DNA of 64,000 nt from an uncultured Gammaproteobacteria bacterium. Lineage in GTDB: Bacteria > Patescibacteriota > Patescibacteriia > UBA9934 > CAZDDW01. The DNA lies in NCBI GenBank assembly GCA_965231015.1, contig OZ246408.1:793908-857907 (forward strand), given 5' to 3'. This document shows positions 6,876 to 59,826 of the stretch, piece after piece. The stretch's first letter is position 1; each line of letters opens with the position of its first letter. Under the pieces are notes generated by a model. The model did not search any database and was not told the origin of the DNA. It worked only from the letters and a program-made list of their open reading frames with translations. Position numbers and translations under genes: made by a program.

Positions 6876-6876
6876 C

Positions 6877-7515
6877 ATGAAACCAGAAACCTTGAAGAAA
6901 AAATGGCCGGTTATTGAAGAACAGTTGGAAACAGCTGACATTTTGTTGTTTCATAAACGAAAGGGTCCAATAACAAAACGGATTCAGGAGGGTACAGGAA
7001 GTTATTGGAATCACATTGCCCTTATCTTTAAACCAAAATCCGAGATGCCAATCGGAGGGCCACTCATTGTTGAAGCAGCCTACAGCGGTATTGAAATTCA
7101 TCAACTAAAAAAATACACTGACCGAACTTTGTTATATGACATTGGAGTGCGTCGTTTTCCAAACTTAACAGAAAAACAAAAACAAGACATTGTCTTGAAT
7201 TTTATTTTAAAAAACTTGGATCAACCGTACGACTACAGTCGATTGGTTGGTCTATTTCTGGCCCCTCTTTTGGTACGTATTTCTCCAAAAATCCTACTCA
7301 AGGCCACGGACTATTTTATTCATGAAAACGCTTTTTTGTGTTCCACCTTTGCCATGAAAGCTTTTCAGCAAATATCAGAAAAACAAAATAAGAGCAAATC
7401 CTTTACCCAACACTTGGGTGTTCAACCCAAGAAAAAACACCGCCAGGAACTTTTTGCACCTGCCGATATTGCTGATTCAGACATGTTTGAGTGGATCTTC
7501 AATGAAAAACATTAA
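6877..7515 (+). CDS. Putative permuted papain-like (YiiX-like) hydrolase, paralog 2
   Basis: SYWNHIALIF ... FLCSTFAMKAF; ATG at 6877 placed 1 nt after the paralog 1 stop (the track start at 6826 is an in-frame extension). Confidence 0.5.
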   Translation: MKPETLKKKWPVIEEQLETADILLFHKRKGPITKRIQEGTGSYWNHIALIFKPKSEMPIGGPLIVEAAYSGIEIHQLKKYTDRTLLYDIGVRRFPNLTEKQKQDIVLNFILKNLDQPYDYSRLVGLFLAPLLVRISPKILLKATDYFIHENAFLCSTFAMKAFQQISEKQNKSKSFTQHLGVQPKKKHRQELFAPADIADSDMFEWIFNEKH

Positions 7516-8968: not shown

Positions 8969-9201
8969 ACAAATATAGCCGCAAAAATCCAAGCATAGAC
9001 AAACGCCTCAACCAAAACAATCGCCACTCCGGCAAAATTAAGACTTTGATAACCAGGGGCAAGAATCTGGATGAACTGGTTGTGATAAGCTCCAAGTTCA
9101 CTTGAACCAAGCACGGCCTGATGAACTAAAATACCGATATTTAAGAGCCCGTAAACAACCACCGAAGCCCAACCGAAGCCTTTTAAAGATAGTTTTTGCA
9201 T
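8938..9201 (-). CDS. Small two-helix membrane protein (87 aa)
   Basis: ATG at 9201; hydrophobic segments; overlaps the start of the GH gene by about 31 nt. Confidence 0.35.
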   Translation of the reverse strand: MQKLSLKGFGWASVVVYGLLNIGILVHQAVLGSSELGAYHNQFIQILAPGYQSLNFAGVAIVLVEAFVYAWIFAAIFVWVYNHFAQK

Positions 9202-10175: not shown

Positions 10176-10592
10176 TTATAGCTCCACTAAATACTTACGC
10201 AAAAATTTCTCTATTCCGAGCACCACCTCATCTTTTAAAGTTGACGGGCTTGAGGCGACCCAAACAGCAAAATTGTAAAACTCAACCTCATCGACCTTGA
10301 TCCATTTTCCGTTTTTATACAAAAAGACCAAAAGTGTGGTCATGGCAAGACGTTTATTACCATTTTGAAACGGGTGATTCTTAACCATTAAATAAAATAA
10401 AATCGATGCCTTGCCAAGCAGACCCCGATAAACAACCCTTTTCTGAAAACGCTGAAATGGTACGGCCAAACATCCTTCGAGCACTCCGGCAAAACGAGTT
10501 CCAAAATCTGGAATGGGTTCATTGAAATTTAAAGCTTCCTTAGCAAAAGTATGTGCCACCTGTTCAACTTCAGCCAGGCTAATGGGTTTCAT
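10176..10592 (-). CDS. doc: Doc-family (Fic-fold) toxin
   Basis: Doc signature HPFQNGNKR (HxFx(D/N)GNKR); 138 aa; 1-nt gap to the upstream HTH gene. Confidence 0.85.
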   Translation of the reverse strand: MKPISLAEVEQVAHTFAKEALNFNEPIPDFGTRFAGVLEGCLAVPFQRFQKRVVYRGLLGKASILFYLMVKNHPFQNGNKRLAMTTLLVFLYKNGKWIKVDEVEFYNFAVWVASSPSTLKDEVVLGIEKFLRKYLVEL

Positions 10593-14300: not shown

Positions 14301-14564
14301 AACGAGGATATTATACCGCATTACTCACCCCCTCTCAAGCGAGGAAATATAATATGACACATTCGAGACCGAGTGTTCTCCACTCCCCTTCAGCGAGGTT
14401 ATTTTTCCTGGAGGAATTTGTGAGCCGACCACAAGACAAACCAAAGACCAAGGATCAATGACCCTTGGTCGACGAAACACCATAACGAGGCTCGGATACC
14501 ATACTTACACTTTCAGCAGATCCAAGGCCGAGTGGTCCTCACAGGGAAATGATCGAGCGCCCCT

Positions 14565-15755
14565 CTACATCATCTTCTTCCGAATAAAGGCCGGGATTTC
14601 CAACTCATCGTCTTCTTCGTCAACTTTTGGTTTGCTTGAAGAGGTTGAAACAGGAACCTGCTCGCGCTCTGACACCTTTGGAGCCTTGGCCTTGATTCGG
14701 CGTGGCTCTTCCCGCTCTTCTTCCTGCACCGGGGCTTGTGGTGCCCATGATCCTTGGGACGGAATTTCCATAGCACCTTGAGCGGTGACAGAACGCCGTT
14801 CTCGCGAATCAAACCCGGTAGCCACTACAGTAATTCTAATGTTATCCTTCATGTCTTCATCAATGTTGGCTCCAAAAATAACCTTGGCGTCCTCATCAGC
14901 TGAACCTGTAATAACCTTGGCCGCTTCAGCCACCTCGTGCATGCCAAGATCTGACCCTCCGGTAACTGTAAAAAGAATACCCTTGGCACCATCAATAGAA
15001 AGTTCCAGCAGCGGACTGGCAATAGCCTGTTTAGCCGCTTCAATAGCCCGATTTTCCCCAGAAGCATTACCGATCCCCATCAAAGCTGAACCAGCGCTTT
15101 CCATAATGGCTTTAACATCAGCAAAGTCAACGTTGATGATTCCAGGAACCGTAATCAATTCAGAAATTCCCTGCACACCTTGTCGCAAAACATCATCCAC
15201 CACAGCGAACGCCTCCATCAGCGAGGTCTTTTTATCTACAATCTGCAAGACTCGATCATTGGGAATACTGATCACAGTATCTACATGTTGGATCAGATTA
15301 TCATATGCTTCATCAGCAATACGTTTTCGCTGTGCACCTTCAAAAGTGAACGGTTTAGTGACAACCGCTATGGTAAGTGCGCCAATATCACGAGCTAACT
15401 TAGCAATTTCTGTTACTGCCCCACTACCGGTTCCACCGCCAAGACCACAAGTCAAGAAAACCATGTCTGAATTACTCAACACTTCACGAACCTCATTTTG
15501 ACTCTCCTCAATAGCCCGACGTCCAATTTCCGGATTCATTCCTGCACCCAGGCCGCGGGTTACAGTTTTCCCAATGCTTACTTTTTTAGAGGCCGGATTT
15601 TGGTGCAAAGCCTGAACATCTGTGTTCACGGCCACGAACTCCACTCCGCGGATCTTTTCTTCGATCATGCGAGTAATAGCCGCACCACCACCCCCACCAA
15701 TGCCAACTACTTTGATCTTGGCAAAGGTCTCAATGTCTGGTTTTACTTCTGCCAT
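14565..15755 (-). CDS. ftsZ: Cell division GTPase FtsZ
   Basis: GGGTGSG tubulin signature; strong SD GGAGG upstream. Confidence 0.95.
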   Translation of the reverse strand: MAEVKPDIETFAKIKVVGIGGGGGAAITRMIEEKIRGVEFVAVNTDVQALHQNPASKKVSIGKTVTRGLGAGMNPEIGRRAIEESQNEVREVLSNSDMVFLTCGLGGGTGSGAVTEIAKLARDIGALTIAVVTKPFTFEGAQRKRIADEAYDNLIQHVDTVISIPNDRVLQIVDKKTSLMEAFAVVDDVLRQGVQGISELITVPGIINVDFADVKAIMESAGSALMGIGNASGENRAIEAAKQAIASPLLELSIDGAKGILFTVTGGSDLGMHEVAEAAKVITGSADEDAKVIFGANIDEDMKDNIRITVVATGFDSRERRSVTAQGAMEIPSQGSWAPQAPVQEEEREEPRRIKAKAPKVSEREQVPVSTSSSKPKVDEEDDELEIPAFIRKKMM

Positions 15756-15980: not shown

Positions 15981-17237
15981 TTATGGCTTCAAGGATTTGA
16001 TTAATTTTACCAGACCTAAACCTAATTGGTTGACCACCTTGATCTTTCCAAACAGATTTCCAAGACCACCTCCGCGTACTCCACTAATACTGTGTCCCCA
16101 GACAACAAGTCCAATAGAGGTGCTGAAAGCTGGATCATTGGCATAATCAACCACAGAAGTAATTCCGATCGGAGTACCAAGTTCGGCTGGCAAGCGCAAT
16201 TGCCGCTTAGCTACATCAATCATGCTTGGCATCTTTGATCCTCCACCGGTTAAAACCACGCCGGCTGGCAACATCCCAGATCTGTCTATCTTCGCTAGTT
16301 CTTGGTCTACTTTTTCATAAATTTCCTCAATCCTGGCTTCAGCTATTTCAGACACAAATTTTGCAGATGTTTTTTCTCCTTCGCTTCCTCCAAACTCTTC
16401 TAAATAAATATCCTCTTTTCGAGAAACCTCACTCGGCAAAGCCACGGCATGCCGCAGTTTAACCTCTTCGGCCACATCAATCGAGGTACGCAAACCAATG
16501 GCAATGTCAGAGGTGATATGACCAGCTCCAACAGGAATAACGGCCGTATGCAAGACATCACCCTCCTCATAAACCACCACGCTGGTGGTACTGGAGCCGA
16601 TATTTACCACAGCTACTCCAAGTTCTTTTTGACGATTACTGACCACAGCTTCCGCACTAGCCAATACAGAAAAAACCAGGTCGTCAATCTCCAGCCCGGT
16701 TCGATAAACACACTTGGTTAGATTCTTAATTTGAGTGGTCAAACCTTGGATTATAAGAGCATCTACCTCAAGCCGGATTCCGTTCATACCCACAGGATCC
16801 TTAATCCCCCGCTGACCATCAACTGTAAAGCTTTTTGGAATCACGTGTAAAATCTCATAATTTGCTGGAGTAGCTACGGTTCGAGCCGCCTCAATAGCTC
16901 GTTCCACATCCTCTTCCTTAATTTCACCATCACTTCTAGCTACTCCTATCACTCCTTTACTTTCTTCGGTGATTATGTGACTTCCGGAAATACCAACCCA
17001 GGCTGTGTTCACCGGAAACCCAGTTAACCGTTCGGCCATTTCCAGAGCCTTGGAGGTACTAGCGGTAGCGTCTTCAATCGAGGTAATTGTTCCTTTATTA
17101 ACTCCCTCGGACGGCATTTCGACAGCCCCAATAATGTGCACCTGTTCTTTGTCGTTTTCTCCTGGCATGGATTGCCCAACAGCCACGCGAATAGCGTGGG
17201 AACCGATATCTAATCCAGCAATAATATTTTCTGCCAT
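15981..17237 (-). CDS. ftsA: Cell division protein FtsA (actin-like ATPase)
   Basis: N-terminal IIAGLDIGS, FtsA-type domain order, C-terminal amphipathic tail. Confidence 0.9.
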   Translation of the reverse strand: MAENIIAGLDIGSHAIRVAVGQSMPGENDKEQVHIIGAVEMPSEGVNKGTITSIEDATASTSKALEMAERLTGFPVNTAWVGISGSHIITEESKGVIGVARSDGEIKEEDVERAIEAARTVATPANYEILHVIPKSFTVDGQRGIKDPVGMNGIRLEVDALIIQGLTTQIKNLTKCVYRTGLEIDDLVFSVLASAEAVVSNRQKELGVAVVNIGSSTTSVVVYEEGDVLHTAVIPVGAGHITSDIAIGLRTSIDVAEEVKLRHAVALPSEVSRKEDIYLEEFGGSEGEKTSAKFVSEIAEARIEEIYEKVDQELAKIDRSGMLPAGVVLTGGGSKMPSMIDVAKRQLRLPAELGTPIGITSVVDYANDPAFSTSIGLVVWGHSISGVRGGGLGNLFGKIKVVNQLGLGLVKLIKSLKP

Positions 17238-17249
17238 AGTCTCAACAGT

Positions 17250-17627
17250 TTAACTGATTTTAGATAAAAAATCCAGTAAATGAGGTCCTAAAATAAATAA
17301 CCCAATCACTGCCGCTAACACAGATGAAAGCAGGACTGTTCCGGCCATAATATCTTTAATTTCAGCCACAATAGGATTCAATCTTGGTTTAAATCCATCA
17401 GCCATGCGCTCAAATGTACTATTAATAAGCTCTAAGATTAAGACCATGCCCACTAGAAGCATGATTAAAATGTGCTCCCAAGTCTCAAGTGGCCAAACAA
17501 AAGCCAAGACAATCACCAGGGTGCCAATTATTACCTGAATCCGGAAGCTCTGCTCACTAACAAACACGCTCTTGATTCCTCTCAAGGCGTGAGAAAAACT
17601 CTTAAACAATTTTTTCACACTTATCAT
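17250..17627 (-). CDS. dgkA: Prokaryotic diacylglycerol/undecaprenol kinase family membrane protein
   Basis: Alignable to DgkA (ILELINSTFERMAD vs VEILNSAIEAVVD); 3 TM helices; ATGA overlap with ybeY. Confidence 0.8.
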   Translation of the reverse strand: MISVKKLFKSFSHALRGIKSVFVSEQSFRIQVIIGTLVIVLAFVWPLETWEHILIMLLVGMVLILELINSTFERMADGFKPRLNPIVAEIKDIMAGTVLLSSVLAAVIGLFILGPHLLDFLSKIS

Positions 17628-18049
17628 ATTTTTACTTTGGACAATATTACTTCCTGCAGAGCGAACATCTCTTCGGCTTCCTTTTTCTTAACATGATCAT
17701 AACCCATTAAATGCAGTACTCCGTGAACCAACAAGCGTAACACCTCTTCTCGAGCCCGCACACCCTGTTTTTTTGCCTGTTGTTGGGCAATCGGGTAGCA
17801 GATTAGCACCTCTCCAAGCACCCCGTCCTCGGCATGTGTGAATGACAAAACGTCGGTAGGCATATTTTTACCACGGTATGCCTGGTTTATCTTTTTGATT
17901 TCCGGCTTTGTTAAAAATGCTACAGATACCTGCCAATCATCGCTTTTGGGAAATAAATGCATTAAAATCCGACTAACCGAATTAAAGGAGCTTTTTGGTA
18001 CTCGTGCTCCTCCGCGGAGCTTTCCGTAATTCACATCAAACCTGATCAT
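17624..18049 (-). CDS. ybeY: rRNA maturation endoribonuclease YbeY
   Basis: Zinc motif HGVLHLMGYDH. Confidence 0.9.
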   Translation of the reverse strand: MIRFDVNYGKLRGGARVPKSSFNSVSRILMHLFPKSDDWQVSVAFLTKPEIKKINQAYRGKNMPTDVLSFTHAEDGVLGEVLICYPIAQQQAKKQGVRAREEVLRLLVHGVLHLMGYDHVKKKEAEEMFALQEVILSKVKI

Positions 18050-19095
18050 TACCTTATCACCATACTATTTAACATCATCTGAAAAGTTTGCAAATAATCA
18101 ACCGTGGTTTTATTACCAACGTTGTAGCTGATGATAAAAACCCGATCTCCATCATCAAGATAAGCGGTCAGCCTGTCCGGACTCATAATTCCGGACAACC
18201 CTTCTTTTGTTTCCACCATTAACAAATCGTCTACACTAGCCTGTAAGTCCTGGGCTAAAAACCAGTCTGTAATAGAGGTCTCTGTTGATTTGGCATTCAT
18301 TAAAACCTGGATTATCTCTCCTGATTCAGCCGTAAATACTACTTGCTCGGTGGGTCCGCCAATCGCACGCACGTTCCAAAGCGATGGATATGTCAGGGTA
18401 TAACTAAACGAAGCCTCATCAAACAAACGCACCAGTCCGGATTCAACCAGCGATGCCGGAGCGGTTCCGTTCGGGTTGTACCGATGAAAGACCTCGTTTC
18501 CGTCCAAGAAACCGTCTTCATCACTGTCCGGTAGGTTGGCCTTAGTTCCATACAACGTTTCCTCCACGTCAGTTAGTCCATCCGAATCTGAATCTGTTCC
18601 GGGAATTAAATCTTCAGCAAATGGACTGACTTGTTCATCCTCATCTTCAATCTCTTCAGGTTCATCCTCGTCCTCGATGTCAGAATCTTCATCATCAGCG
18701 GTTATATCATCAGTTACCGGGGGTTCATCGTCAGGTATTTCAATTTCCGGAACCGATTCTGGCTGTTGTAGGGTGTTTAAAACTATCAAAGCCGCGGCCA
18801 CAAACAAGGCAATCACAATTATCCCTATCACCACCAGCTTGACCGGGAAGCCTTTTTTCTTGGAAGGCTTGGAAGGCTTGGAAGGCTGAGAGGGCTTTGA
18901 AGGCTCTGGAGCTTTCGCAGCGGGAGGTGGCACCGGCTTTGGTTTTGCCGGCTCTTTTGGTTCAGTTCGTTTTACCGGCGTCTCATTGAGGGCAGTTCGT
19001 CGATACTTCTCTGGCATAGCCTGAATCAAGGGCTCGTTTTCTTTGGCCTTGTTTCCTGCTGGCTGTTCGATTTTTGTTTGGTCAGCCTTTGCCAT
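18049..19095 (-). CDS. Single-pass membrane protein: Pro/Lys-rich N-terminal cytoplasmic region, TM, acidic linker, two TSP3-type Ca-binding repeats (DSDSDGLTD, DSDEDGFLDGNE), conserved (F/N)xYxPNG motif, extra C-terminal domain
   Basis: Direct motif reading; paralog of the two upstream genes; shares 1 nt with the ybeY start. Confidence 0.7.
   Translation of the reverse strand: MAKADQTKIEQPAGNKAKENEPLIQAMPEKYRRTALNETPVKRTEPKEPAKPKPVPPPAAKAPEPSKPSQPSKPSKPSKKKGFPVKLVVIGIIVIALFVAAALIVLNTLQQPESVPEIEIPDDEPPVTDDITADDEDSDIEDEDEPEEIEDEDEQVSPFAEDLIPGTDSDSDGLTDVEETLYGTKANLPDSDEDGFLDGNEVFHRYNPNGTAPASLVESGLVRLFDEASFSYTLTYPSLWNVRAIGGPTEQVVFTAESGEIIQVLMNAKSTETSITDWFLAQDLQASVDDLLMVETKEGLSGIMSPDRLTAYLDDGDRVFIISYNVGNKTTVDYLQTFQMMLNSMVIR
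18859..18903. repeat. Intragenic 9-bp tandem repeat (CTTGGAAGG x3 perfect plus degenerate copies) encoding a PSKPS-rich tract
   Basis: Direct reading. Confidence 0.8.
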
Positions 19096-19097
19096 AA

Positions 19098-19787
19098 TTA
19101 TTCAGTTGTGGGCAAATCAGTTAATTTTCCTGATCCATTCGGATCATAACCGTTGGACACCTCATCACCATCAAGATACGTATCTCCGTCCGTGTCAGGA
19201 TCAAGCGGATCTGTCTTCCACGTTTTTACCTCCTCATAATCACTTAACCCGTCAGCATCAGTATCACTAATGCGCGGACTAGTTCCATATTCTCCGGTCT
19301 CTTGAACATCACTTAATCCGTCACGGTCGGTATCAAATGAGTCTGACGGTTCTGGGGCTGGCTCTGGAACTTCTTCTTCCTCCTCTTCCACCACTACATC
19401 ATCATCCATCATGGTGTCTTCTTCCATAATTTCATTTGGATCCACTTGAATATCATCTGCTGGAGCACGGTTCAAAAGAAAATATGAAATCAGCCCGGCC
19501 GCCACAATTACTAAAACCACTATAACCACAATTAAAATGATCTTTAAGGTACGCCCTGTACCCTTGAGCGCGGAAGGTGGGGCTGATTTTGCTTCAGTCA
19601 ACGGTGGAGTCTGCATGGGTGTTGCCGGAGCCCCGGGTGATGGTTTGGGTTTTTCCGAACTCATGGCCGGCATAGGACCACTCGTTGGAGCCTCAGGTCG
19701 CGGTGGCGGAGTCGGGGCTTCACCCCCCTTGTCCGTGTCCGCAAAAATATCTTCAGGCTCATTCTTTTTTTTCACGTCATCAAACAT
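19098..19787 (-). CDS. Single-pass membrane protein with Pro-rich N-terminus, acidic linker, three TSP3-type Ca-binding repeats and C-terminal NGYDPNGSGKL motif
   Basis: DTDRDGLSD, DTDADGLSDYEE, DPDTDGDTYLDGDE repeats. Confidence 0.7.
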   Translation of the reverse strand: MFDDVKKKNEPEDIFADTDKGGEAPTPPPRPEAPTSGPMPAMSSEKPKPSPGAPATPMQTPPLTEAKSAPPSALKGTGRTLKIILIVVIVVLVIVAAGLISYFLLNRAPADDIQVDPNEIMEEDTMMDDDVVVEEEEEEVPEPAPEPSDSFDTDRDGLSDVQETGEYGTSPRISDTDADGLSDYEEVKTWKTDPLDPDTDGDTYLDGDEVSNGYDPNGSGKLTDLPTTE

Positions 19788-19818
19788 AAAAAATATTCAA
19801 TTTACATTTTTACAATTT

Positions 19819-20808
19819 TCAATTTAAGGTACCTGAACCGACCGGGTCATATCCAGAGTTAACCTCATCACCGTCCGCATATCCATCCCCGTCTGTATCT
19901 ACGACAAGCGGAGAACTGCCATATACTTCTACCTCTTCCCCGTCAGTCAAGCCGTCACCATCGGTATCCGGATTGAACGGATCTGTATCAAGATCCAATT
20001 CTTCCCCATCCATTAAACCGTCTCCGTCAAGATCAGGATTAGTATCGTCCATGCCAAGTTCAGCCTCCCGGTCACTACTAACCCCGTCTAAATCAAGATC
20101 AGCTGGACCCACGCGATCGTAACAACCCTCAATCAATTCTTCCGGTAAAACATCACACAAACTTGGGTCACGCACCGTGATAGCGTTTTGGATCGTGATT
20201 TCAGCTTTGCAATAACTTTCATTGACACCGTTCTCTGCACACGTTCCTGCGCGCATGATGGTTGGTAAAATTTGAGCCTGGCAAGAGGCCACCCATTCCG
20301 GATCAGTTAATTCTTCCTCACACCGGGCGTAATCTTTTTCTGCCACAATAAGTGGTAATAAAATGTGATCATAACAGGCCTCACGAGTTTCTTTATCAGT
20401 AATTGCATCGCAGTCTTCCGGATTACCCTTTTCCCGAGCCACCGTTTCCACACAGGCCACAAATGATTCTCCTTCTAGCATTTCACACACAGCGAGTGCC
20501 GAGGTCTTGGAAGCCTCCCGAGTAATAGTTCGCGCCTCACAAGCGGCCGGATCTTTTGCTTCAGCACATTCAGACAACTGACCGGCTAATCGTTTTTCAG
20601 TTTCTATTAAAGTTTGTTCATTCATCTGTCGCTCGTCAATATTGTGCGAGATGTTTCGTACAATAACCACTGCCACAATGATAATAATGACAGCCAAAAG
20701 AACCGAGCCGATGATAATAGCAATGGTTCGAACCGAAAGACCTCCGGATGGTTCCTGTCCTTCACCTTCCGGAACATACTCGTAAAGTTGTGGTTCTTGT
20801 TCAGCCAT
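19819..20808 (-). CDS. Single-pass membrane protein with Cys-rich central region, four TSP3-type repeats and C-terminal [12 protein letters not shown] motif
   Basis: [36 protein letters not shown] repeats; about 18 Cys in the middle section. Confidence 0.7.
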
Positions 20809-20811
20809 ACT

Positions 20812-23800
20812 TTAGAACGGACAGTAATTCATTTCAATATTTGTTAGATTCACGGTTCCCGTGCCTGGGAAACTAATTCTAAACGGCACAGTAAACTCTT
20901 CGTCTGATTCCGGACACTCGAAACCGATTGGGAATAGCAACGGCTGACTATTCCCTTCGTTCATAGTTCCGCTTGAAGTTCCGGCATCAGTGGTATAAGT
21001 GATATGTTTTCCAATAATGGATTCCACAATAGCCTCGTACATATCACGTAAATCTTCGGCGGTTTCACTTGAATAAGCATATTCGATTCCATTGTTTGAA
21101 GGTGAACAATTATCCGCATCAGAAATATCATCCGGTTCATCTCCTGAACAAACATCCGGCATAATTCCGGCTCGTTCACAAACATCACTCGACCAGTGGG
21201 CCATATAACCCTTAAGACTGCTTGATCCGGTCAGGGCAGCAGTATACAAATCCAAAGTTCCGGTTTGCCCCTCACAATCGCGTTTCAAACGCCGAGCCCA
21301 TTCGTCTACCGTGTTTTCACCATCTCCGGCTGTCGGGCTACCATCACTTAATAATACCACCACCTGAACCGTGTCTTCCGGAGCCGGATTTTCCAGCTCA
21401 TTATAAACCGCCTCCAGACCCTCTTCCGGGTAAGTGCTTCCGGATGCGCTGTAAGCATTTACTGTATTGATAAGTGAATATTCATCTTCAGAGGTAGACA
21501 AATTATAATCGATATTACCGGTACCAGGGCTACTAAAGCTAGCTAATCCAATTTCAATGGTTCCATCTTCAAAGGAATCAAACAGTTCTCCAATAGCATC
21601 AATGGTCGCTTCTTTAGCAACATCGAGCCTAGAATCTGAACCATCGAGTAATTCATTCATACTGGTTGACAAATCCATAATAAAGAACACTTGAACGTAT
21701 GGTGGAGTGACTCCAGCGAATGACACATCTGCAGTTAAACTGGATCCAACCCGACAGGCTGGGAAGTACATTAAAGCGGTGTCAGGTGAATCACCGGAGC
21801 CGAAACTATACAGGTCAACTGAATCTGTTTTTAGTGAACCCTCTTCTTCGGCCTCAACCTGGACGGACACACTGGAGAGTGAAAACGGACAACCGGACGA
21901 ACAGTTATCATTACACTCAGGAGCTACACAGGTACCAAGAGAAGTGGTCGGGGGAAACGAGAACGGATTCTGTCCACAATTATCATCGTAGTCGGCAATT
22001 CCAGCGTTGACATCACACGGAACTCCGTTGAAATCTTTTAACTCATCATCAATTGTTCTGTACCCACCATTACAATAACCGGCCGGAGCACACTCGTATA
22101 CTTTATCAGCTATTCCATCCCCATCGTCATCACACAAATCATTGTTATCACACAAATCCTGACAATCTAGAAAACTGTCACAGGCGCCGGAAATATCTCG
22201 CCGGTCAGGGTCTTCATCTTTTAAAATACAATAATTGATTGGCATATCCGTGCCATCACAAAACTCACTTCCGTTAACCTGATCGTCACCACAGTAACCA
22301 CCGCTCATGGTTTGGTACTGACAACTGGCCGTACAGTAGTTACAGCTTCCGCCGTACGGCGCTTCACACGGCACGGCGTTCCCGGCACCCCAGTCACAGG
22401 CTTCAATTCCATCATAACGCTTACCGTCTCCACAAACATTAAACAAGCAGGAAGTAGTGCACTCATCATTGTTATCATCATTTCCATCATCACACTCCTC
22501 TGTTCCTTCTGTTACCCCGTTTCCACAATACCCAGTTCCAATACAGCTCTCACCACCAATTTCGTCCCAACCACCCACAAAATGGCTTGAGTCAGCCTCT
22601 GGCCAAAAACAACCTGTACCAGCAGCGATGTCAGAGTCACACACACGGGTACGCATAGTTTCAAATTCAAAAGTTGAGCATGTGCCATTGGCACATTCTC
22701 CGTCCGTCTGACACGGCTTACCAATTTCGTCTCCGGTATCACACAACTGTGAAGATTCACAGGCTTCATAACCACTGACATTACCACACGTTCCACCCTC
22801 ACAATCATCATCAATTTCACATGGCTCTCCCTCAAGTGACCCTGACGAACAAATCGCGCCGTCCCAAGTCTCTGACTCACCATCACACTCTTCTGATCCG
22901 TTTACTACTCCATCGCCACAGCTTGGTGGATCTCCGGCACAATTAAAGGCACAGCCCTCATCTGGGTCGTATGAATAAATTCCGTTTACGTACTGACAAC
23001 TATTGGCCACGGCCCAAGCACCACTCGTACGAAAATCTTCGTTGTAACCACAGTCACACACTTCACTTCCGGCCAAAGTTCCGTCTCCACAAAAAATTGC
23101 TCCATCAACGTCACAGTCGAGTCCACAATATCCGTACTGACCATTGAAAGCTCCATCATCACACTCTTCTCCATCATCAACAACTCCGTTTCCACAAAGG
23201 TATGGAGTACAAGACGAAGCAGAGTCAGCCGCTTCTTGATATGCGGAACAGTCTGCACTACCACTTACAGCACAGTTTCCACTGTAACAACAAGTGACGG
23301 TTTTTTGACCTTCTATATATGTACAGGTTCCTCCTCCGCAATCAATTGAGTCATTACACGGGTCACCGTTTGAACAAACCCCACTGGCACACTCACCATC
23401 TGCTCCACAGGTGGCAACTACGTCTCCGGCCGGATCACAAACGGTTCCATAATAACTTGATTCAACATCATTAAAACAGATATATACTTCACCCGGATCA
23501 CAATCCACGGTTTGTGTGTCTCCAATTTCACAGGTCTCATTTTCACCCACCACTCCATCGCCACACTCTTCGGAAAGACCAAGTTCGGTTCCATCACAGA
23601 AAAGAGAAGTAGTAAATCCATCCGGATTAGATTCAGACGCATTACCAACGGTAATTTCAGCCCAATCTGTGGTGTCCTGGTCTAGATCATAAGCCCAAGG
23701 AGCGCCATTATATTCTAAATCAACAAACAACTCGTAAGCTTCCCCGGCTATGGAGCGGAAGCCATAGACATGTGAGCCTTCATTGCAAACAAACTGCGAA

Positions 23801-26800
23801 GCGTCCCCGTTCCAACAACTGGTTTCATCATAGCCCTCCGGACAATCGGCTAAATTATTAAGTGGGTCCGTTGGCAAAGCGGCACCCAAATTATTTCCCA
23901 GCTGAGCCTGCCAACTTGGCCAAGCACTATAACTGCGGGAACGTAAAAAACTTCCCACTTGCAATTCCGGTACGGTCTGCACACAAGTTTCACCCCCCGG
24001 ACAGTTATCGTCCACAAAACAGGCCATGGTTTTTGTCACTGAACAACGGCTATTGGTGCTACCGTAGGTATCAATCTGTCCGTACATGCTGCGCAAATCT
24101 GACAAGCGTATAGTGTCACGCTGCAACATTTGTTTTTGTGCTCCACAAACCGCATCGGCTCCGTACTCAAAACACTCGGCGTCATAACTACATTCAGCTA
24201 ACTGTAAACCGTCCGTAGCATTATCAGTATCGATCGGGTTTGCGTAGGCGTCGGTTTCATAACAAAACTCATCATCAAGCAAAACATCATTGGCATTGAA
24301 TGCCCAGCTATCAAGCACTTGCTCAAACACTTCCAAAGTTTCATCCTCTGCCCCTTCATTGTAGGCAATGGCATAAATATTAGAGTAAATGTCCCCGGTC
24401 TGATTGGCCGCATTAACATAAACCGTACGACCGTCCTGAACCGCTTCGTAACCATCCACATCATCGGTTGAAGAATAAGATCCGTCAAAGTTGGCATCGT
24501 ACCAATCACCTGGCGAGTAATAATCCTCGTTGCCAGCAATCCTGACACCAACCGCATCGGTGTAATCATCCCCATCAATCATAAACAGTAACTCACGGAA
24601 TACTCCGGAAGTGGTTTGTGGATTTGGTGCCTCGACCACCCTCATGTTTGGTAGATCATCGCTCGTATCAGCCGCGTCTCCGGCGTCCCGACAATAATAG
24701 AAAGAGAAATTAGAATATGGGAACGGACTGCCAAGATCGGTTCGTACGGACGGACCAAAATCTCCAAGCCCCAGACCCTCAAAGGCGGTATCATATTCTT
24801 CAGTATCAGAAAAAGGGAACGTGCCCACTTGTGGCCATGGATTTTCACACAAGAAGACCATCTCTTCAACCGAACCACTGATTACCTCTCCGGTAGTGCT
24901 TGGATCGTTAAACGAGTCGGATGTCACTGTAGCAGAAGCCACAATATCCTCTTCACCGTTTTTAGATTCAGCAACCGCGTCATTGAGGTCAGTTGTCGCG
25001 GCCGGGTCAGATAAATTTAAAACTGATCCATCTCCGGTTATACCCCAGCTCCAGGTCCAATCATAATAACCGGCAATTGGCGTAATTTCTTCCCGAACGT
25101 TATTACGGATTGTATATGCCGCAGCTTCGAGGTCATGACTTTCAGCCGCTTCAGTAAAGAGTCCTGGACTTGAAGACTTGTCTTCCACTAACACGTCTTC
25201 AAGCTCACAAACCTCAGTTCCGGTCTTGAAACTTGAAGCTAAAAGTTGATTTGCCTCAAAACCATAAAGAGCGTCAGTGATAGTCGGTCGGATAGTGATG
25301 CCGTACTGTGTGGTTACTCCAATGTTGTAAGCAGCCTCGGTATTATCATCCTGCAAATCCTGATCACCTACCACCACCAACCGGTACAAAGAATTCTCTT
25401 CAAGTGGTTGTGAGTAGGTAAAAGTGACCTCGGTACTGCTTTCAGATAAATCATTAGACAGGGTGCCCTCCATGTAACAGACAACGGGATCCTGGGCATA
25501 CACCTCGCGACCGAACAAGCCAGCCACCTTATTAGCCACAAAACGCCAAGCCCGGACGTACCACGGACGATCACCTTCATGTAAAGCAACCAAACTTTCT
25601 TCATAACCGGACGGACAATCACCGGTTTCAAGATCAGCGTCAGGCTGTGCTTCACCGTCCACCAACACTCCTGAACCAAGATAAATTAAGAAAATGTTGT
25701 CCACGGTTTCATTACCAACCTGGACGCGGAAAGACTCAGTATCCATTAAGGAATCAAACTCAGCACTAACCGAGGCGTTACGACACACGTCTTCCCGAGC
25801 ATCTGGAGCAAAAGTGGCGGTTGGTCGATCAGCACAACAACCACCAAAACCACAACCGATCGTAGTATAAGTCGCGACGCCACAATCAAGATCTTCCTCA
25901 CAAGAACAATTGACACCAACTTCAGCTTCTCCGGTAGCTCCGGTGCCGGTTTGACTGTCCGTTCCTTCAGCTCGCAGATCCGTCATGATTGGATTTTCAT
26001 CCAAGACAACCGACGCTTCGATCGCCCCCTCAGATATTTCAGCCACCTGGAACGGATCAATTAAACCGTCCCCGCCGGCCAAAGCGGCTTCACATTCTTC
26101 ACCTGTTCCATAATTGCCATCACCACAAAAAGATGGAGTTGAGTATTCGTGATTTGATCCCTCAAAAAGACCGTCATCAGAACAACCTTCATCAGCTGGA
26201 TCACACTCACCGCTCTCATTCAAACACCGCGAACTGCAACCATCTCCATTCGTTCCATTTCCATCATCACAGTCTTCCCCGTCCTCCCGAGTGCCGTTAC
26301 CACAGACAGCTGTAATTTCGGTTGCATCAAGCGAACCCTCATTTAAACAAATATTGGAACAACCGTCTCCGGAACTATTATTTCCATCATCACACTCCTC
26401 ACCCCCTATAGCATCATTGTGCAAAATAATTCCGTCTCCACAAACTGTGCCAGCGTAACCTGAACCCTCGTTTGTACAAACACTGGAACATCCGTCTAAA
26501 TCATCATTGTTGCCGTCATCACATTCTTCAAAACCATCCATTGATCCGTTTCCGCAAGTTCCGCCATCAGCCACAGCGGCAGTTCCCTCGGTCGTACAGG
26601 TAGCACTACAACCGTCTCCGTCCAGTGGTAAACCAGGGCCGTCATCACAGTCTTCACCAAATTCTTCTACTCCGTTACCGCAAACCGATACTCCGTAATC
26701 ACTTCCCTCGTTCAAACAAAGGCTGGAACATCCGTCCGGAAGTTCACGAGTGGTATCAAGGTTTGCTGGGGTAAAGAAAGCAATCTCGTAATTGTCTGGA

Positions 26801-29800
26801 ACCGTATTATCAATCTCCCAGTTCCAAGCATAGTCATACGCGTCAAGCCGTTGACCGGATGGTGAACACTCGTCCGGTCCGCCGTAAGCAGTGGCTTCGT
26901 AGGCTTGTTGAGCCCCGATTCGATCCAATACTTCACGTTCAGGATTTACTTCAACACGTTCAATACCACACGGAGCAGAATCGGCTTTAGTTTTAAAAAT
27001 CCACTCTTCATCTCCGGAAAGCCCGGTACCACTAAGACTCAACACCCCTTCTACCTGATCAGTTGTTGATGGATCATCACCGGAAATCCGCACCAAATAG
27101 TAAGTATCTTCTTCCAAATCACTTGGCGGACTCAAAGAGATTGACCAATCCCCGGCGTTGTAATTCAGTGTTCCGCCCACCACTTCCGTAGTTCCCAAAT
27201 TACAAAGCGCGTCGGAACACTCATACAGCCGAACATTGCCGTTGAAGCTGGACGAATCCATATCCAAATTAAAGGTCGCGCCAACCACAGCGTTGACACA
27301 AGCCTCTTCACACTCAGGCCATCGGTCTTCTACCCGAGGATCTTCAAAATTGACCTGAATGTCAGAGCTATCTCGTAAATTTTCATCCGTGATCTCGGCA
27401 GTGAGCTCAACCACATGACCGGGTTCAGTTTCAGATTCTGCCTCAACATTATAGGTATCAAAATCAAGCGAGACTAAATCAATAATGTCATCCCAGTCAG
27501 TGTTACCTGTATGCTCAGCATACCAGGTCCACACATCTCCCGGGGTATACAACACCTGACATCCTCCGGCTCCGATTGCGGAAGCATCAAAGTCGCTGTT
27601 TTCTTCAACGAAGGTGTAACTCTTTTCCGGAGGCAACAATAGCACACTCTCTATTTCACAGTCTGAGGTATCAGTCCTGGTCTGAAACTGCCACTCGTAA
27701 TCCGTTTCTAAGGGTTCTCCATCAGGACTTGTAATGCCTCCGATTCCACCAACGAGCGTCACCTGGTACCAAGTACTTGGATCAAAGACGGTACCGGCCG
27801 GCGATGAAATCCACTGGAAAGTGGTGTCAAACTTATCATCAAATTCTCCGTCAACAGTTTCTAAATCAGAACAAGGATCATCCGGATCCAGCCCGACACA
27901 TTTTTCTACAATGACGGTGCTCGTGGTGATACTTGCAAGCTCCACTCCGGGATCAGTTTCAAAAGAACCCTGCACCATTGAATTTACACAAACTTCCTCA
28001 CCGTTCGGCCAGGCTGTGTATGGCGTTGGGCTAATCCAATCATCAGAACATTCAACAATGAGTTGTGGAGCGTCCGGAATTTCTCCGGTAGAAAAACGCC
28101 AAAGGTATTCTGATTCCGGGATAGTTTCACTTGGACAAGTGGCTCGACACGCTCCATCATCACAACAAGTTTCACCTTGTGCGCACTCCGCTCCCCCATC
28201 AAGACAACTAGCCACTTCAAAATTAATCGTGTTTGAGGCAGTACCACCATTATCATAAAGTGTGACCGGTCCGGTGGTAGCTCCGGAAGGCACTTCTACT
28301 CGAACCTGTTCGCCATCACCTCCCCAATAATCAATGTTGGTTACGGCTACCCCATCATAAAAATCAACCGAGCCCTGCACGCTTCCAAACCGTTCACCAT
28401 AAAGATCAACCAACAGGCCCTCCGGACCGTTAGTCGGATCAATGGCACAAATGCTTGGCCCCGGACTGCCACTTGTTACCGTAAACTCGGCCTCATTACT
28501 TTCAGCACCATCATCACGCTCAATCCAAATTGCGGCTGAGCCTCCATCAGCCCATTCCGGTACCTTCATTATAATATTGTCATCCGCCCACCAATTGCTG
28601 GCACAGGCGTCTGGAAAATCAACATCAGCAACATCTGTTGCTCCGGTGGAATCCCTAAACCAAACAATGCCACCCGGCGGATCGTCGTCAAAATTTTCTC
28701 CGTAAATTGTTACGTATTGTCCAATAGGTCCGGTGTCTCCATAGTCTTCACAGGCACCAAAATTACATGGCGTATCATCACCTATTGTACAACCGGTCAC
28801 TGTTGGATCATTGGAACAATAATTTGGTACGTCCAAAGTACAGGTTCCAGCACAATCACTGTCAGCACTACAAGCTAAATCCGTGTTGTCGGCACAATAA
28901 TCAAGACCGGAATCAACATAACTGATGACCGGAGTCTCTTGTTCCGTCTCTGAGCTAACCGTAAACTGAACCGTGTTTGAACCATTCCCTTCTACAAAAA
29001 CCTGAACCTGATAATTACGAGCTGATACTTGAGGAACCGGGAAGCTAATACTTTCATCATTCCAATTTTGATACTCACTTGGTTCGTATCCGGTATTTCC
29101 GTAAAGAAGGTAAAGATTGTCCTCGGTCGTACCGAAATTTTTACCCGTGGCTACCACAATATCGTCCGGCAAACCACTTTCCGGATTAACGTCACACATA
29201 CTTGGTCGCACAGTACCATCTTCCGTGAAATCAATAATGACTGGGCCACGGTCATAATCATCGGTTCGGTCAGACAAAGGACCGTCAGCTTCAGCCGGCT
29301 CAGTCACAATTATGATCGGCCCGTCAACAAACCCGTTTGGTACCTCTACCACCACCTGAGTGCTGGTCCACGGATCAGCACAGTCAGCCACTAATGCCTG
29401 TACGTCATCATCATCTCCTTCTTCATCACCGTCCCCGTCCGTATCCGCTCCTAAAAACCAAACTTCTCCTTCTGCGTCATTAAAATATTCTCCTGAAATT
29501 GTAATGTAGTTTCCTGAGGTACCCTGGGTTGGTGAAACATAAGTTATTTCCGGATACCCAACACAAGTTCCCTCCTCACAAATTCCACTGGCACAATCAC
29601 CGTTTTCCGTACAAGATTCACCATCACAAGATAGACAATCATCTCCACCACAATCTACTCCGCTTTCGTCTTCGTCCTGCACACCGTTGGTACAGTGAGC
29701 AACCAAAGCGCTCACTGTAATGGAATCCGATAAAGTAGAGCGGCCGGAACAGTCATAGGCACGCGTACTCAAATTGTGTGAACCAAGAGAGGGCTCCGTC

Positions 29801-30798
29801 CAGTTGGCACTGTAGAGATCTGGCTCGCCAAGATTCAAAACCACTCCGTTGTCTTCAAATGAACTGTCAACGTAAAACTTAACCCGGTTGATTCCACCGT
29901 CGTCTGTGGCAATTGATTGCATAAGTGCCAGTTCTCCTACCGGAACTGAACCCCCATCATCCGGGTACGTCATCTCAACGGATGGGTCAGAGGTATCAAT
30001 TAAGTCCCCGGTGGTAAAAGTTGATTGACAGTCTTCACCCGGTGAACCACAGGTAATTAGCTCGCCACCGGTTTCTTTTAGACCGGCTCCGATTTGAACC
30101 GTGTAAGTAGTATTGGCATCAAAACAAAATTCAGCAGGGTCTTCCGGACAAACCGCTGACGGGGTAAACATAACCTCATCATCTTCAGTGTCAAAAGTTC
30201 CATCCACCGGATCACCAAGCGGATCCTGAATCTGGATGTTGCTGGCAATCGTAGAGGTGTCAACAGAATTATTAAATAAAATAGTGACCACTACATTTTT
30301 ATTTGGTAGATCACCGGTAGCACAACCATAACTCTCAATAATAAATTCATCATAAATCGGTGGGTTATCACCCGGATCCCAAGGGTCATCCCCCTCCTCC
30401 CCGGTTCCGGTGCCACCACCTACCGCGTCTACTAAAGAAGAAATAACAAATGTGGTAATGGCCCAGGCAGACATGATGATAACCATGCCAATTACAGCAT
30501 TCACCAACACCTTTTTAGCTTTACTGATTTTTTCCGCCTGACCACCTGAAGTCATCCACAAAAATCCGCCATAAATAATTAGGCCAAGCAAAACCACGCC
30601 GGCAAAACTGAGAGCGGTACGGATGAGTCGCGCCACTACAACCCGAATGTCAGCCTGAGCGAACCCGGCCTGTTCGGCAAACTGCTGAAACGCTGTTTCA
30701 TCAACCGGACCTTGAGCCAAGGCCTCGGTTCCAACAACCAAACCAAAGAGCGTAAGCCCGATGATCATGATCCAATAATTTTGGCGGATATATTTCAT
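20812..30798 (-). CDS. Giant (3328 aa) cell-surface protein: N-terminal pilin-like hydrophobic domain, Ig-like/IPT-TIG domains, myxococcus-type Cys-rich repeats (CGNG..ECDDGN), C-terminal von Willebrand factor A domain
   Basis: Uninterrupted 9987-nt ORF; IPT-like [22 protein letters not shown]; at least 4 CxxGxxExGExCDDGN repeats; vWA MIDAS DLSTSM...LLSDGSPT. Confidence 0.85.
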
Positions 30799-30799
30799 T

Positions 30800-32734
30800 T
30801 TATTCAGGTATTACACTACAGTCCCCTCCTCGACTTACCTCAGCGTCGCCACGACAACAACTCGGACTTGAGCTATCCACGTTACAATCCGGAGGAATCA
30901 CATCTTGAGCAGGATTAGCACTGCCCGGTCCATGCGCTGGGTAATAACAAATCTGGTACGAGCTTTTAATTCCGTGACTCAACCATGGTTCATAGTACCA
31001 AGTCAGCGTGTCAGTTGATTCTAAGAACAAGCCGTGGTCAATCACAACACGAGTGGCAGTTGGTTCAGCATCAGCCTGCGGTGGAGTTTCAGAATATCCC
31101 TCGTACAAGTTTTCCTTTTCAATTCGGTATGACAATTCATGGGTCGTAAAGTCACTTGATACCGGAACCAATCCAATGTTGTTGCTGTTCAAACTAGAAC
31201 TCATGAGCGTGACACCCGGCCCGGGTGGAGATACCCCGTCATCCTCAATAAACGTGGCAGATATTTCTGCGTCCAGTTCTACTTCTTCAGCCTCAAGATC
31301 AGGTCGCAATTCATAAATCGACGGGATCACATCATTGACTTCGTTCGTAGTTTCAAAGGCCCAAACATAGTTGTCCGTGGTTGGTCCATCAGCTGTACCG
31401 TCCAGGTTGGTAGAGGCTCCAACGTCCGGATTGTGGTTATTGTTTCCTCCATCAAGAGAATTGCCGGTCACATCCACCGCACCATCGTACGGATAGCCCA
31501 CAGCTTCCGGGGCACTATCCCCGACTGTCGCCGCAGTTACCGTAGTGTTGATCACAGACTCGCCCGGCAAACAGTAAATAGTGTCGCCACACGGATCCTC
31601 AGCACAAGCATCATCTGAAACAAACTCGATTGTCCGATATCCGTTCGAAATCGTCCAAGTTCCGGTCACGGTTCCTGAATTAAACGGATCCTGAAATTCA
31701 GCCAAAACATTTGAAAAGAAACTGTCTACGCCGTTATAGGTGCCGCTCACGGCAGTCGGATCCATAGCCTCGTTAAAATTGATCTGAATCACCACGTTGC
31801 GGTCTTTTTCTGTAGCGTGTCCAGGATAAACACTCTGCACGTATGGAGGCTCCAGATCAACCTCTGTCGAAACTTCAAAGGTCCATTCATAACCACCGTT
31901 AAAATTACCACTAAAAGCCTCGGTGCCATCTTCTTTTAAGATACCGTCCTGCAAACTAACCGTGTAGTTCATCGAATCAATCGCACTACCAAGGAGCTCA
32001 ACCGGATCAAAAACCCAGCTTAGATTATCTGCGGTTCGGTTCACAAGCACAGCTTCACTTGTTAAAGCCGATCCCTCCCCTTCGGAATTTGGATAAATTA
32101 AAACTAAACCATCGTTTAAAAAGTACGTATCATCAGTTTCGTCACCCGGAGTTCCGTTGTCGGAATATACACCATTGGTTAGTGAATCTAAGTTAATAGG
32201 TTCTTTAAAAGTGATGATTACCTTAGTGTTCCGTGGGATGTCATTGGCATTGCGTAGTGGCCAATGGTCTTGAATGATTCCCGCACCAAGCGGACCGGAA
32301 AGCGGTTCCACCCCGACCGGTGGTTCTGAACCAAACCCGCCAAAAATTCCTCCTTGACCGAGTAAGGCATTGAGAATAAATGAAACTATGCTATACGAAG
32401 CAAGTACAATAAAAGCGCCAATCACAGCATTGCGCATGATGAGCTTGGCCTTCTTGACCTTTTCAGCGTCTCCGGCTGAAGTCATCCAAAGGTAACCCGC
32501 GTACACAATGAGAGATAAAAATATTATGCCAATCAGACCGATGGCATAACGAATAATAATGGCCACAACCACACGAATATCAGTTTCAGGAAGACCGGCC
32601 GCTTGTCCAACCATTTCAAGTTGATCCTCTTGAGCCATGGCTTCCGGAGCAAAATAAAACAATAATCCCGCCACCACTACGACAAGGGTGGCGATGCAAT
32701 ATGTTCGCCATCTATTTTGCACTGCTTCAAGCAT
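30800..32734 (-). CDS. 644-aa surface protein sharing the pilin-like N-terminal domain with the giant protein, Ig-like beta-rich body, Cys-rich C-terminus containing RGD
   Basis: N-terminus DIRVVVAxIIRxAI...YxGxLWMTSxGxxEKxKKAK alignable to the giant protein; 1-nt spacing to the giant gene. Confidence 0.8.
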   Translation of the reverse strand: MLEAVQNRWRTYCIATLVVVVAGLLFYFAPEAMAQEDQLEMVGQAAGLPETDIRVVVAIIIRYAIGLIGIIFLSLIVYAGYLWMTSAGDAEKVKKAKLIMRNAVIGAFIVLASYSIVSFILNALLGQGGIFGGFGSEPPVGVEPLSGPLGAGIIQDHWPLRNANDIPRNTKVIITFKEPINLDSLTNGVYSDNGTPGDETDDTYFLNDGLVLIYPNSEGEGSALTSEAVLVNRTADNLSWVFDPVELLGSAIDSMNYTVSLQDGILKEDGTEAFSGNFNGGYEWTFEVSTEVDLEPPYVQSVYPGHATEKDRNVVIQINFNEAMDPTAVSGTYNGVDSFFSNVLAEFQDPFNSGTVTGTWTISNGYRTIEFVSDDACAEDPCGDTIYCLPGESVINTTVTAATVGDSAPEAVGYPYDGAVDVTGNSLDGGNNNHNPDVGASTNLDGTADGPTTDNYVWAFETTNEVNDVIPSIYELRPDLEAEEVELDAEISATFIEDDGVSPPGPGVTLMSSSLNSNNIGLVPVSSDFTTHELSYRIEKENLYEGYSETPPQADAEPTATRVVIDHGLFLESTDTLTWYYEPWLSHGIKSSYQICYYPAHGPGSANPAQDVIPPDCNVDSSSPSCCRGDAEVSRGGDCSVIPE

Positions 32735-33021
32735 GAAGCGTTCTTAATTTACTAGCTTATTATACCTTAATTTAGTTGAGAAGCGAAGTGTGGATAAGGC
32801 TAAAGCAAGTGAGTTGAATCCAAACCATATATATTTAAGTCTAGACTTTTGCAACACGGTTTCAAAAAAGATACGGTCGGCCACTTTTTGCAACCACTTT
32901 AAGCATAAACTGGTTCCACTTTAGGGCCGGCCGGACCCTTTTTGGAACCACATAGAAATTACACAATCGTCTGAAATCGGTGTGTAATCAGATCCCTTGC
33001 CCTAATTTTAGCCAATTAGTA

Positions 33022-59805: not shown

Positions 59806-59826
59806 AAACAATAACTAGCGCTATTT

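Follow-up and report, generated by a model that had tools for sequence, protein, structure and literature searches.

Three predicted membrane-anchored protein families with capped TSP3-type repeats, encoded beside a giant surface protein in a Patescibacterium

In a 64,000-nucleotide (nt) stretch of Patescibacterial DNA (contig OZ246408.1, positions 793,908 to 857,907; hereafter the window), positions 18049-20808 are filled exactly by three adjacent minus-strand open reading frames (ORFs), which we named pA, pB, and pC in transcription order. Each is predicted to encode a protein with a short array of thrombospondin type-3 (TSP3) repeats that ends in a specialised last repeat, and the three lie directly downstream of the gene for a giant Cys-rich surface protein. 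A first-pass annotation of the window had described three tandem genes with TSP3-type repeats and a shared end motif, and this description holds: the ORFs are present, and the motif follows the last repeat in pA, pB, and pC alike. The accompanying proposal that the genes are diversifying paralogs does not hold, because the similarity between their products is limited to the repeat module.

Architecture of pA, pB, and pC

The principal features of the three genes and their predicted products are as follows (nucleotide coordinates are those of the window, and residue numbers are those of the protein concerned).

19819..20808, minus strand: pA, 329 aa, bitopic (ORF, Pfam TSP3_bac 57 bits, composition, orthologue alignment)
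20659-20727, minus strand: transmembrane (TM) helix of pA, residues 28-50
20101..20586, minus strand: Cys-rich ectodomain of pA, residues 75-236, with six ~27-residue Cys-pair helical repeats
19825..19860, minus strand: cap motif of pA, residues 317-328, one residue before the stop, conserved in orthologues
19098..19787, minus strand: pB, 229 aa, bitopic (ORF, Pfam TSP3_bac 33.2 bits, composition, 1473 database relatives)
19731..19787, minus strand: cytoplasmic N-terminal motif of pB, MFDDVKKKNEPEDIFADTD, of the 'MFDD...EDIFA' type
19473-19541, minus strand: TM helix of pB, residues 83-105
19122..19154, minus strand: cap motif of pB, N-G-Y-D-P-N-G-S-G-K-L, residues 212-222, followed by a 7-residue tail
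18049..19095, minus strand: pC, 348 aa, bitopic (ORF, 53 close relatives, 1113 cluster representatives, family alignment)
19003..19029, minus strand: cytoplasmic motif of pC, L-I-Q-A-M-P-E-K-Y (family consensus hydrophobic-[HFY]-x-M-P-x-x-[FY])
18775-18837, minus strand: TM helix of pC, residues 87-107
18448..18486, minus strand: cap motif of pC, H-R-Y-N-P-N-G-T-A-P-A-S-L, residues 204-216, internal, joining the last repeat to the C-terminal domain
18052..18447, minus strand: C-terminal domain of pC, residues 217-348, a predicted alpha/beta sandwich of the PsbP/Mog1 type

Loops of the form D-x-D-x-D-G-x-x-D-x-x-E occur four times in pA, three times in pB, and twice in pC, which agrees with the two to four per protein that had been reported, and the single hydrophobic helix of each protein likewise matches the one TM helix described before. 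The ligand positions of the loops (D1, D3, D5, D9, and E12) are invariant or nearly so in alignments of the pC and pA families; the first pA loop is degenerate. Scoring against Pfam TSP3_bac (PF18884; curated cut-off 25 bits, whole-protein score), which had been suggested as a check of the repeats, placed pA (57 bits) and pB (33.2 bits) above the cut-off; pC alone fell below it at 14.4 bits, although 17 of 21 members of the pC family match the model (best E 3.5e-6). When all six frames of the window were scanned, the loops and the terminal motif were confined to pA, pB, and pC, with a single acidic match of low complexity in the giant gene as the exception, which argues that the pattern in the three genes is not due to chance.

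Only one solved structure was matched by the repeat module: region B of Staphylococcus aureus Bap (7C7R/7C7U). The module superposes on the Bap repeats with a root-mean-square deviation of 0.7 A over 45 residues at 53% identity (Foldseek against the Protein Data Bank [PDB]), and the profile match has an E of 5e-7. From their sequence and from this match, we infer that the repeats bind calcium. Bap itself is a wall-anchored biofilm protein that has no domain architecture in common with pA, pB, or pC; the match spans two repeats, and no cap is seen in the aligned stretch.

The products of pB and pC are similar in plan. In pB, a Pro-rich cytoplasmic tail is followed by the TM helix, an acidic linker, three TSP3 repeats (residues 152-211), the cap, and the short tail; in pC, the order is a Pro/Lys-rich cytoplasmic tail, the TM helix, an acidic linker, two TSP3 repeats (residues 168-203), the cap, and a PsbP-like domain. 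The cytoplasmic tails contain 22% (pB) and 21% (pC) Pro and have basic residues beside the TM helix, and the linkers contain 42% (pB) and 45% (pC) Asp plus Glu. Because the tails are positive-inside, the ectodomains of pB and pC must be extracellular.

The first-pass annotation had ascribed a Pro-rich, inside-positive N terminus and an acidic linker to all three proteins, which is correct for pB and pC but not for pA. The N-terminal tail of pA is acidic, is only 27 residues long, and contains 11% Pro; it is followed by the TM helix, a Cys-rich helical domain, four TSP3 repeats, and the cap at the C-terminal end. In place of an acidic linker, a 186-residue segment with 12 Cys separates the TM helix from the repeats. 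The Cys-rich member of the trio is thus pA, which adjoins the giant gene, and not the middle gene as had been stated, since pB contains no Cys. The Cys of pA form six C-x8-12-C pairs (81/90, 108/119, 133/145, 163/176, 190/200, and 218/229), and all 12 are invariant in 14 orthologues, for which reason the pA ectodomain must also be extracellular, in line with the location originally proposed for all three ectodomains. In AlphaFold models of pA and pC built on family alignments, the Cys-rich domain is all-helical and consists of helical hairpins, with a predicted local distance difference test score (pLDDT) of about 90. We found no relative of this domain by sequence in Pfam or the PDB, and a Foldseek search of the PDB returned only generic helical repeats with E above 1.

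A database search with pB returned 1473 relatives, and OmpA-family proteins dominate the matches. An 'MF[DE]x' start together with '[PV][ED]D[IM]F[AS]' in the cytoplasmic tail is found in 45 of 61 pB orthologues. The M-P motif of pC is present in 88 of 146 cluster representatives and in 44 of 77 full-length orthologues, where it lies a median of 45 residues before the TM helix. Both cytoplasmic motifs sit in tails that are otherwise of low complexity, and FtsA is a candidate partner for them by analogy with FtsN and PilN. Within the pC tail, a 9-nt tandem repeat (18859-18910, 5.7 copies) encodes (PSK)n, possibly a length-variable spacer between the M-P motif and the membrane.

Exactly two repeats are present in 131 of the 146 pC cluster representatives. 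A homologue search identified 53 close relatives of pC, and its C-terminal domain has 1113 relatives at E <=1e-3 among 1.84 billion representatives, in which it is always C-terminal in proteins of ~300-600 residues. The existence of this extra domain had been recognized earlier, at an estimated ~150 aa; its size is 133 aa. It is modelled with pLDDT above 90, and its Foldseek matches are cyanobacterial PsbP (2xb3/2lnj), photosystem II PsbP (6kac_P and 5xnl_P), BT_1490 (3hlz), and Tsi3. The matches to 2xb3, 2lnj, 6kac_P, and 5xnl_P have E of about 1e-4, a probability of 1.0, and target-normalised template-modelling scores of 0.43-0.54. By profile, the PDB match was again 2xb3, at a weak E of 0.014. 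Pfam PsbP (PF01789) did not match the pC of the window, and its weak matches in 4 of 21 pC relatives were below threshold (best E 2.8e-4). On the basis of the model, the fold of the domain is of the PsbP/Mog1 type, although by score the domain falls outside the Pfam PsbP family. The likeness to the PsbP/CyanoP/Mog1 sandwich (Foldseek probability 1.0, target-normalised score about 0.5) is accompanied by clear differences: the pC score lies under the Pfam threshold, the organism is non-photosynthetic, and pC joins the domain to a TM anchor and a pair of TSP3 repeats. To our knowledge, such a fusion of a TM anchor and TSP3 repeats to a PsbP-like domain has not been described for PsbP-like proteins.

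The capped last repeat and the relationship of the three proteins

The consensus of the specialised last repeat is D-x-D-x-D-[GT]-[YF]-x-D-G-x-E-V-x-x-G-Y-[ND]-P-x-G-x-G-x-L, and the shared motif is the tail of that repeat. When the last pA repeat is aligned in register with an internal repeat, E-V-N-S-G-Y-D-P falls opposite E-L-D-L-D-T-D-P. The first half of the motif is therefore an ordinary TSP3 repeat tail in which Tyr replaces Thr, and by this alignment the distinctive feature is the entire last repeat and not the motif alone.

Conservation of the motif beyond this locus, which the first-pass annotation had asked about, is clearest in pB, in which each column of 'EV..GY.P.G.G.L' shows at least 80% conservation over 48 orthologues. 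In pC, 'EV...Y.P.G.....L' is conserved at 80% or more across 50 orthologues, and Y206 and P208 are invariant and L216 nearly so in the family alignment; in pA, 'EV..GYNPLG.G' is conserved at 50% or more across 27 orthologues. Among the database matches, a strict form of the motif comes after the final repeat in 71 of 76 pB-type (MFx-type) proteins and in 12 of 16 pA-type proteins; of 102 long TSP3 proteins, most of which are of the OmpA family, just 2 have it there. Because of this distribution, we regard the cap motif as a signature of these Patescibacterial families and not of TSP3 repeats generally, and the possibility that it is a generic TSP3 feature was rejected. The OmpA-family proteins (PF18884) resemble pA, pB, and pC in being envelope proteins with the same 12-residue calcium loop and short helix every ~23 residues. 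They differ in that they are outer-membrane proteins of diderms, their arrays run into OmpA_C, and 100 of the 102 lack the G-Y-N-P-x-G-x-G-x-L cap, whereas pA, pB, and pC have an N-terminal TM anchor in a monoderm and a specialised, capped last repeat. A Pfam scan found no OmpA domain in pA, pB, or pC, and the matches to OmpA-type proteins share the repeats only.

In the AlphaFold models, the cap is a closed hairpin loop (pLDDT above 90) with a beta-bridge that joins Y320 to T327 in pA and Y206 to S215 in pC. In our reading, it is a structure that caps the repeat array and not a sorting signal, which is what the first-pass annotation had suggested it might be. If the motif were a signal for sorting or processing, of the kind used by a sortase, rhombosortase, or exosortase, it would be recognised and cleaved at the cell surface, and it does lie at or near the C terminus of pA and pB; moreover, the pB of the window ends in 'LPTTE', which is superficially like LPXTG. 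However, signals of the LPXTG-sortase, GlyGly-CTERM, and PEP-CTERM types require a hydrophobic helix and a basic tail after the motif, and here pA ends 1 residue and pB 7 residues further on, both with polar tails. A single Pro of the pB tail, not LPxT, is conserved across orthologues. The same motif is internal in pC, where it runs into a confidently folded domain, and all three proteins are already anchored to the membrane by their N-terminal TM helix. None of the scanned window proteins matched a sortase family. A sorting function is accordingly very improbable.

We give still less credence to the idea that pA, pB, and pC are recently duplicated paralogs that are diversifying as a variable surface family. 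It would fit three neighbouring genes with a common repeat module, but pairwise BLAST comparisons restrict the similarity to a 46-71-residue repeat-plus-cap module (47-56% identical), outside which the proteins are unrelated, and each gene has orthologues at the same position in many genomes. In 26 genomes that have all three genes, the module identity across genomes is 0.70 within family B, 0.70 within family C, and 0.55 within family A, compared with 0.53 between families inside one genome, and the nearest neighbour of a module belongs to the same family in 70 of 78 cases. Because the modules group by family across genomes, and not by genome, these comparisons indicate that pA, pB, and pC are three old orthologous families under conservation. 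The sorting-signal and DIVERSIFYING-paralog readings are both essentially excluded.

The conserved neighbourhood and the giant protein

The trio lies within a string of minus-strand genes, the other members and flanking sites of which are as follows.

30800..32734, minus strand: gene for a 644-aa protein with a T4SS_pilin-like N-domain and Big_5, first gene of the tight gene string
20812..30798, minus strand: gene for the giant 3328-aa Cys-rich surface protein, directly upstream of pA
17624-18049, minus strand: ybeY, downstream of pC
17250-17627, minus strand: dgkA, downstream of ybeY
15981-17237, minus strand: ftsA, downstream of dgkA
14565-15755, minus strand: ftsZ, downstream of ftsA
32865..32838, minus strand: promoter-like site upstream of the 644-aa protein gene
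14470..14446, minus strand: best terminator-like hairpin of the minus strand, 3' of ftsZ

Gaps of 1 nt and 3 nt, respectively, separate the 644-aa protein gene from the giant gene and the giant gene from pA. Within the trio, pA and pB are 31 nt apart and pB and pC 2 nt apart. Downstream, pC and ybeY overlap by 1 nt and ybeY and dgkA by 4 nt, and the intervals between dgkA and ftsA and between ftsA and ftsZ are 12 nt and 225 nt. A scan of the minus strand of the gene string found no strong terminator-like site upstream of the hairpin that follows ftsZ. Given the tight packing, the promoter-like site before the 644-aa protein gene, and the hairpin after ftsZ, co-transcription of the giant gene with pA, pB, and pC is likely, and the spacing of 1-3 nt between genes points to coupled translation.

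The gene order is shared by six metagenome or genome contigs with pC homologues (26-41% identity), in which the gene for a giant protein is followed by those for one to three small TSP3 proteins and then by pC, ybeY, dgkA, ftsA, and ftsZ. A scan of one genome per species confirmed at least 244 loci, among which the named records belong to Uhrbacteria, Magasanikiibacteriota, Falkowbacteria, and Parcubacteria. Across Uhrbacteria and related lineages, the recurring gene order is large Cys-rich protein, (pA), pB, pC, ybeY, dgkA, ftsA, ftsZ. Many of the records with this Patescibacterial gene order are titled 'uncultured Gammaproteobacteria bacterium' (e.g., those of loci L009-L012, L014, and L017), and in these third-party assemblies the title is probably a placeholder or a mislabel.

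In 69 of 70 loci, the first TSP3 gene is preceded, at a distance of under 700 nt, by the end of a large ORF that is Cys-rich in most cases, and 62 of the 70 are matched by the giant protein of the window; most of these upstream ORFs exceed 1200 residues and extend past the fetched DNA. A pB-type gene is directly upstream of pC in 58 of the 74 loci that have upstream sequence. On the downstream side, ybeY follows pC in 72 of 85 loci, and the complete ybeY, dgkA, ftsA, ftsZ order is present in 62. Nine divergent loci have no ybeY, dgkA, ftsA, or ftsZ nearby, and all nine retain the large upstream ORF; the link to the large protein is therefore more robust than that to the ybeY-ftsZ genes. In two of them (L078 and L085), the large protein, pB, and pC are followed by clpP on the opposite strand and then by secD and secF. 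Further divergent relatives with pB and pC after a large Cys-rich ORF are L079-L081, L083, L084, and L087.

The giant protein of the window contains a VirB2-like T4SS_pilin N-domain, Big_5, Big_7, TIG, DUF4215, and a C-terminal VWA domain with a 'DLSTS' motif of the MIDAS type (adhesion site that depends on metal ions). The fusion of a pilin-like membrane hairpin to a giant ectodomain is unusual; the 644-aa protein shares the N-domain and Big_5 with the product of the giant gene (20812-30798). The T4SS_pilin N-domain is not a constant feature, as it is present in only one of eight complete upstream large proteins from divergent loci. Loci in which the giant protein ends in '..N-[FILV]-x-[FL]-x-Y-C' (the C-terminal VWA subtype) all carry the gene for pA (26 of 26), and none of 39 others does, in counts that are uncorrected for shared ancestry.

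Possible roles of the trio

We propose that pA, pB, and pC are membrane-anchored, calcium-stabilised surface partners of the giant protein. The partnership is deduced from the gene neighbourhood, and our confidence in it is evenly divided. According to this proposal, the three single-pass proteins would be oriented with the N terminus inside and the C terminus outside, each holding a short, calcium-binding array of TSP3 repeats out from the membrane of a monoderm Patescibacterium, probably an Uhrbacteria-like one to judge from the closest homologues. The stalk would be the long acidic or Pro-rich linker in pB and pC and a rod of disulfide-stapled helical hairpins in pA. The tail of the last repeat (G-Y-[ND]-P-x-G-x-G-x-L) would fold back as a small hairpin and cap the array, at which point pA and pB would end and pC would go on to a PsbP-like domain for protein binding. 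This domain and the capped arrays would then serve as interaction heads for the co-encoded giant protein, so that the trio could hold, space, or present a giant Cys-rich Ig/VWA protein at the cell surface. The pB-pC pair would be the older core, accompanying any large surface protein of the lineage, and pA would be tied specifically to the C-terminal VWA module of the giant protein, possibly through an acidic repeat-to-MIDAS contact. COMP-type TSP3 repeats have been proposed to engage the MIDAS sites of VWA domains in integrins and in Myxococcus CglD/CglB (10.1101/2023.10.19.562135), and such contacts, together with the 'DLSTS' motif of the giant VWA domain, provide a concrete model for pA.

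The Myxococcus CglD/MtsD system resembles the present one in combining TSP3/COMP-like calcium repeats with a VWA/MIDAS adhesin at the cell surface in a calcium-dependent manner (10.1101/2023.10.19.562135). CglD, however, is a diderm lipoprotein that has both modules in one chain, whereas here the repeats (pA, pB, and pC) and the VWA domain (the giant protein) are encoded by adjacent genes, and a gliding machinery is lacking here. Membership of the CglD and MtsD families (NCBIfam NF033765 and NF047639) was rejected, as the scores were 35 bits against a cut-off of 400 and 16 bits against a cut-off of 800, and the matches were local to the repeats.

Several observations weigh against the proposed partnership. 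The case for physical contact with the giant protein is one of gene neighbourhood. The sampled loci come from related lineages, and the co-occurrence counts are therefore not phylogenetically independent. The upstream large proteins of divergent loci mostly have no detectable T4SS_pilin or VWA domain, and the giant protein is thus not one uniform partner. The synteny also holds ybeY and dgkA, for which no link to surface proteins is evident, and gene order in this region can therefore persist without shared function. Finally, calcium binding is deduced from sequence, and pC by itself does not reach the TSP3_bac cut-off.

The persistence of gene order is the starting point of a different explanation, in which pA, pB, and pC are independent calcium-binding spacers of the wall or S-layer, comparable to the TSP3 linkers of the OmpA family, and their adjacency to the giant gene is merely inherited. 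TSP3 arrays are calcium-binding linkers in many unrelated envelope proteins, OmpA-family proteins prevail among the database matches, and synteny in the lineage is generally so stable that even ybeY and dgkA keep their position. We consider this explanation unlikely, however, as the order of the large protein, pB, and pC outlasts a rearrangement that removes the downstream genes, pA follows one giant subtype perfectly (26/26 versus 0/39), and the 1-3 nt gaps point to translational coupling. It is also rather improbable, in our view, that pB and pC are lineage-specific bitopic proteins of the division apparatus or envelope, with cytoplasmic peptides that bind FtsA or another cytoplasmic division protein. 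This would be in keeping with the position of ybeY directly after pC in 72 of 85 loci (with dgkA, ftsA, and ftsZ following in 62) and with the short conserved motifs in the cytoplasmic tails. It would also be in keeping with the architecture of FtsN and PilN, which likewise combine an extracytoplasmic domain with a single TM helix and a short peptide in the cytoplasm, and the peptides of which bind the IA-IC cleft of FtsA and PilM (PMC7613929). As in those systems, pB and pC are predicted to be bitopic with the N terminus inside, have a conserved cytoplasmic peptide, and are encoded near the gene for an actin-like candidate partner. But their motifs are unlike the FtsN or PilN peptides in sequence; ybeY and dgkA intervene between pC and ftsA; and the nine divergent loci retain the large protein, pB, and pC with clpP/secDF downstream in place of ftsA/ftsZ.

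The surface partnership and an intracellular connection could also be combined. By analogy with FtsN and PilN, pB and pC might act as a trans-membrane coupler, the cytoplasmic peptides docking on FtsA or another division or cytoskeletal protein while the ectodomains hold the giant protein. We regard this as a doubtful, speculative extension. If it were true, the placement or renewal of a giant adhesin-like protein would be tied to the division site, and Patescibacteria would possess an undescribed divisome-associated module.

Patescibacteria account for a large share of bacterial diversity; the members in culture live attached to others' cells, and most of the surface machinery of Patescibacteria lacks annotation. 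In Saccharibacteria, several adhesins are needed for epibiotic growth (PMC10633639). The locus defines three unnamed protein families, whose genes and that of a giant surface protein make up a fixed module. In Pfam, NCBIfam, and the searchable literature, we found no description of the capped last repeat, the architecture of a TM helix with two TSP3 repeats and a PsbP-like domain, the Cys-pair helical domain, the two cytoplasmic motifs, or the giant-protein module, and searches of the literature for this gene cluster or for Patescibacterial TSP3 repeats likewise returned nothing. TSP3 calcium repeats on envelope proteins are a known biochemical kind, and on present evidence there is no surprising new mechanism. 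The gain lies mainly in the annotation of a large unnamed family and in hypotheses about how Patescibacteria anchor giant surface proteins. The capped TSP3 variant, the PsbP-like ectodomain, the Cys-pair helical repeat, and the two cytoplasmic peptides provide handles on that anchoring and on its possible control by calcium.

A few other features of the window may be recorded. Two adjacent, slightly overlapping plus-strand ORFs (6222-6875 and 6826-7515) both match Peptidase_C92 (permuted papain-like amidase); they represent a tandem duplication or else one gene with a frameshift. A short Fic-domain ORF (10176-10592, minus strand) is located downstream of the division cluster; in the related contig L003 (14598-20951), the equivalent place after ftsZ is taken by a complete Fic gene together with a type I restriction-modification system. 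Four sizeable ORFs (7535-8992, minus strand; 46241-46900, minus strand; 52771-53235, plus strand; and 60166-61491, minus strand) had no Pfam match at the thresholds used. An Rfam scan of the window returned tRNAs only. On the minus strand, a tandem pair of adjacent genes (57114-58514 and 58516-59811) encodes class II (D/K/N-type) aminoacyl-tRNA synthetases.

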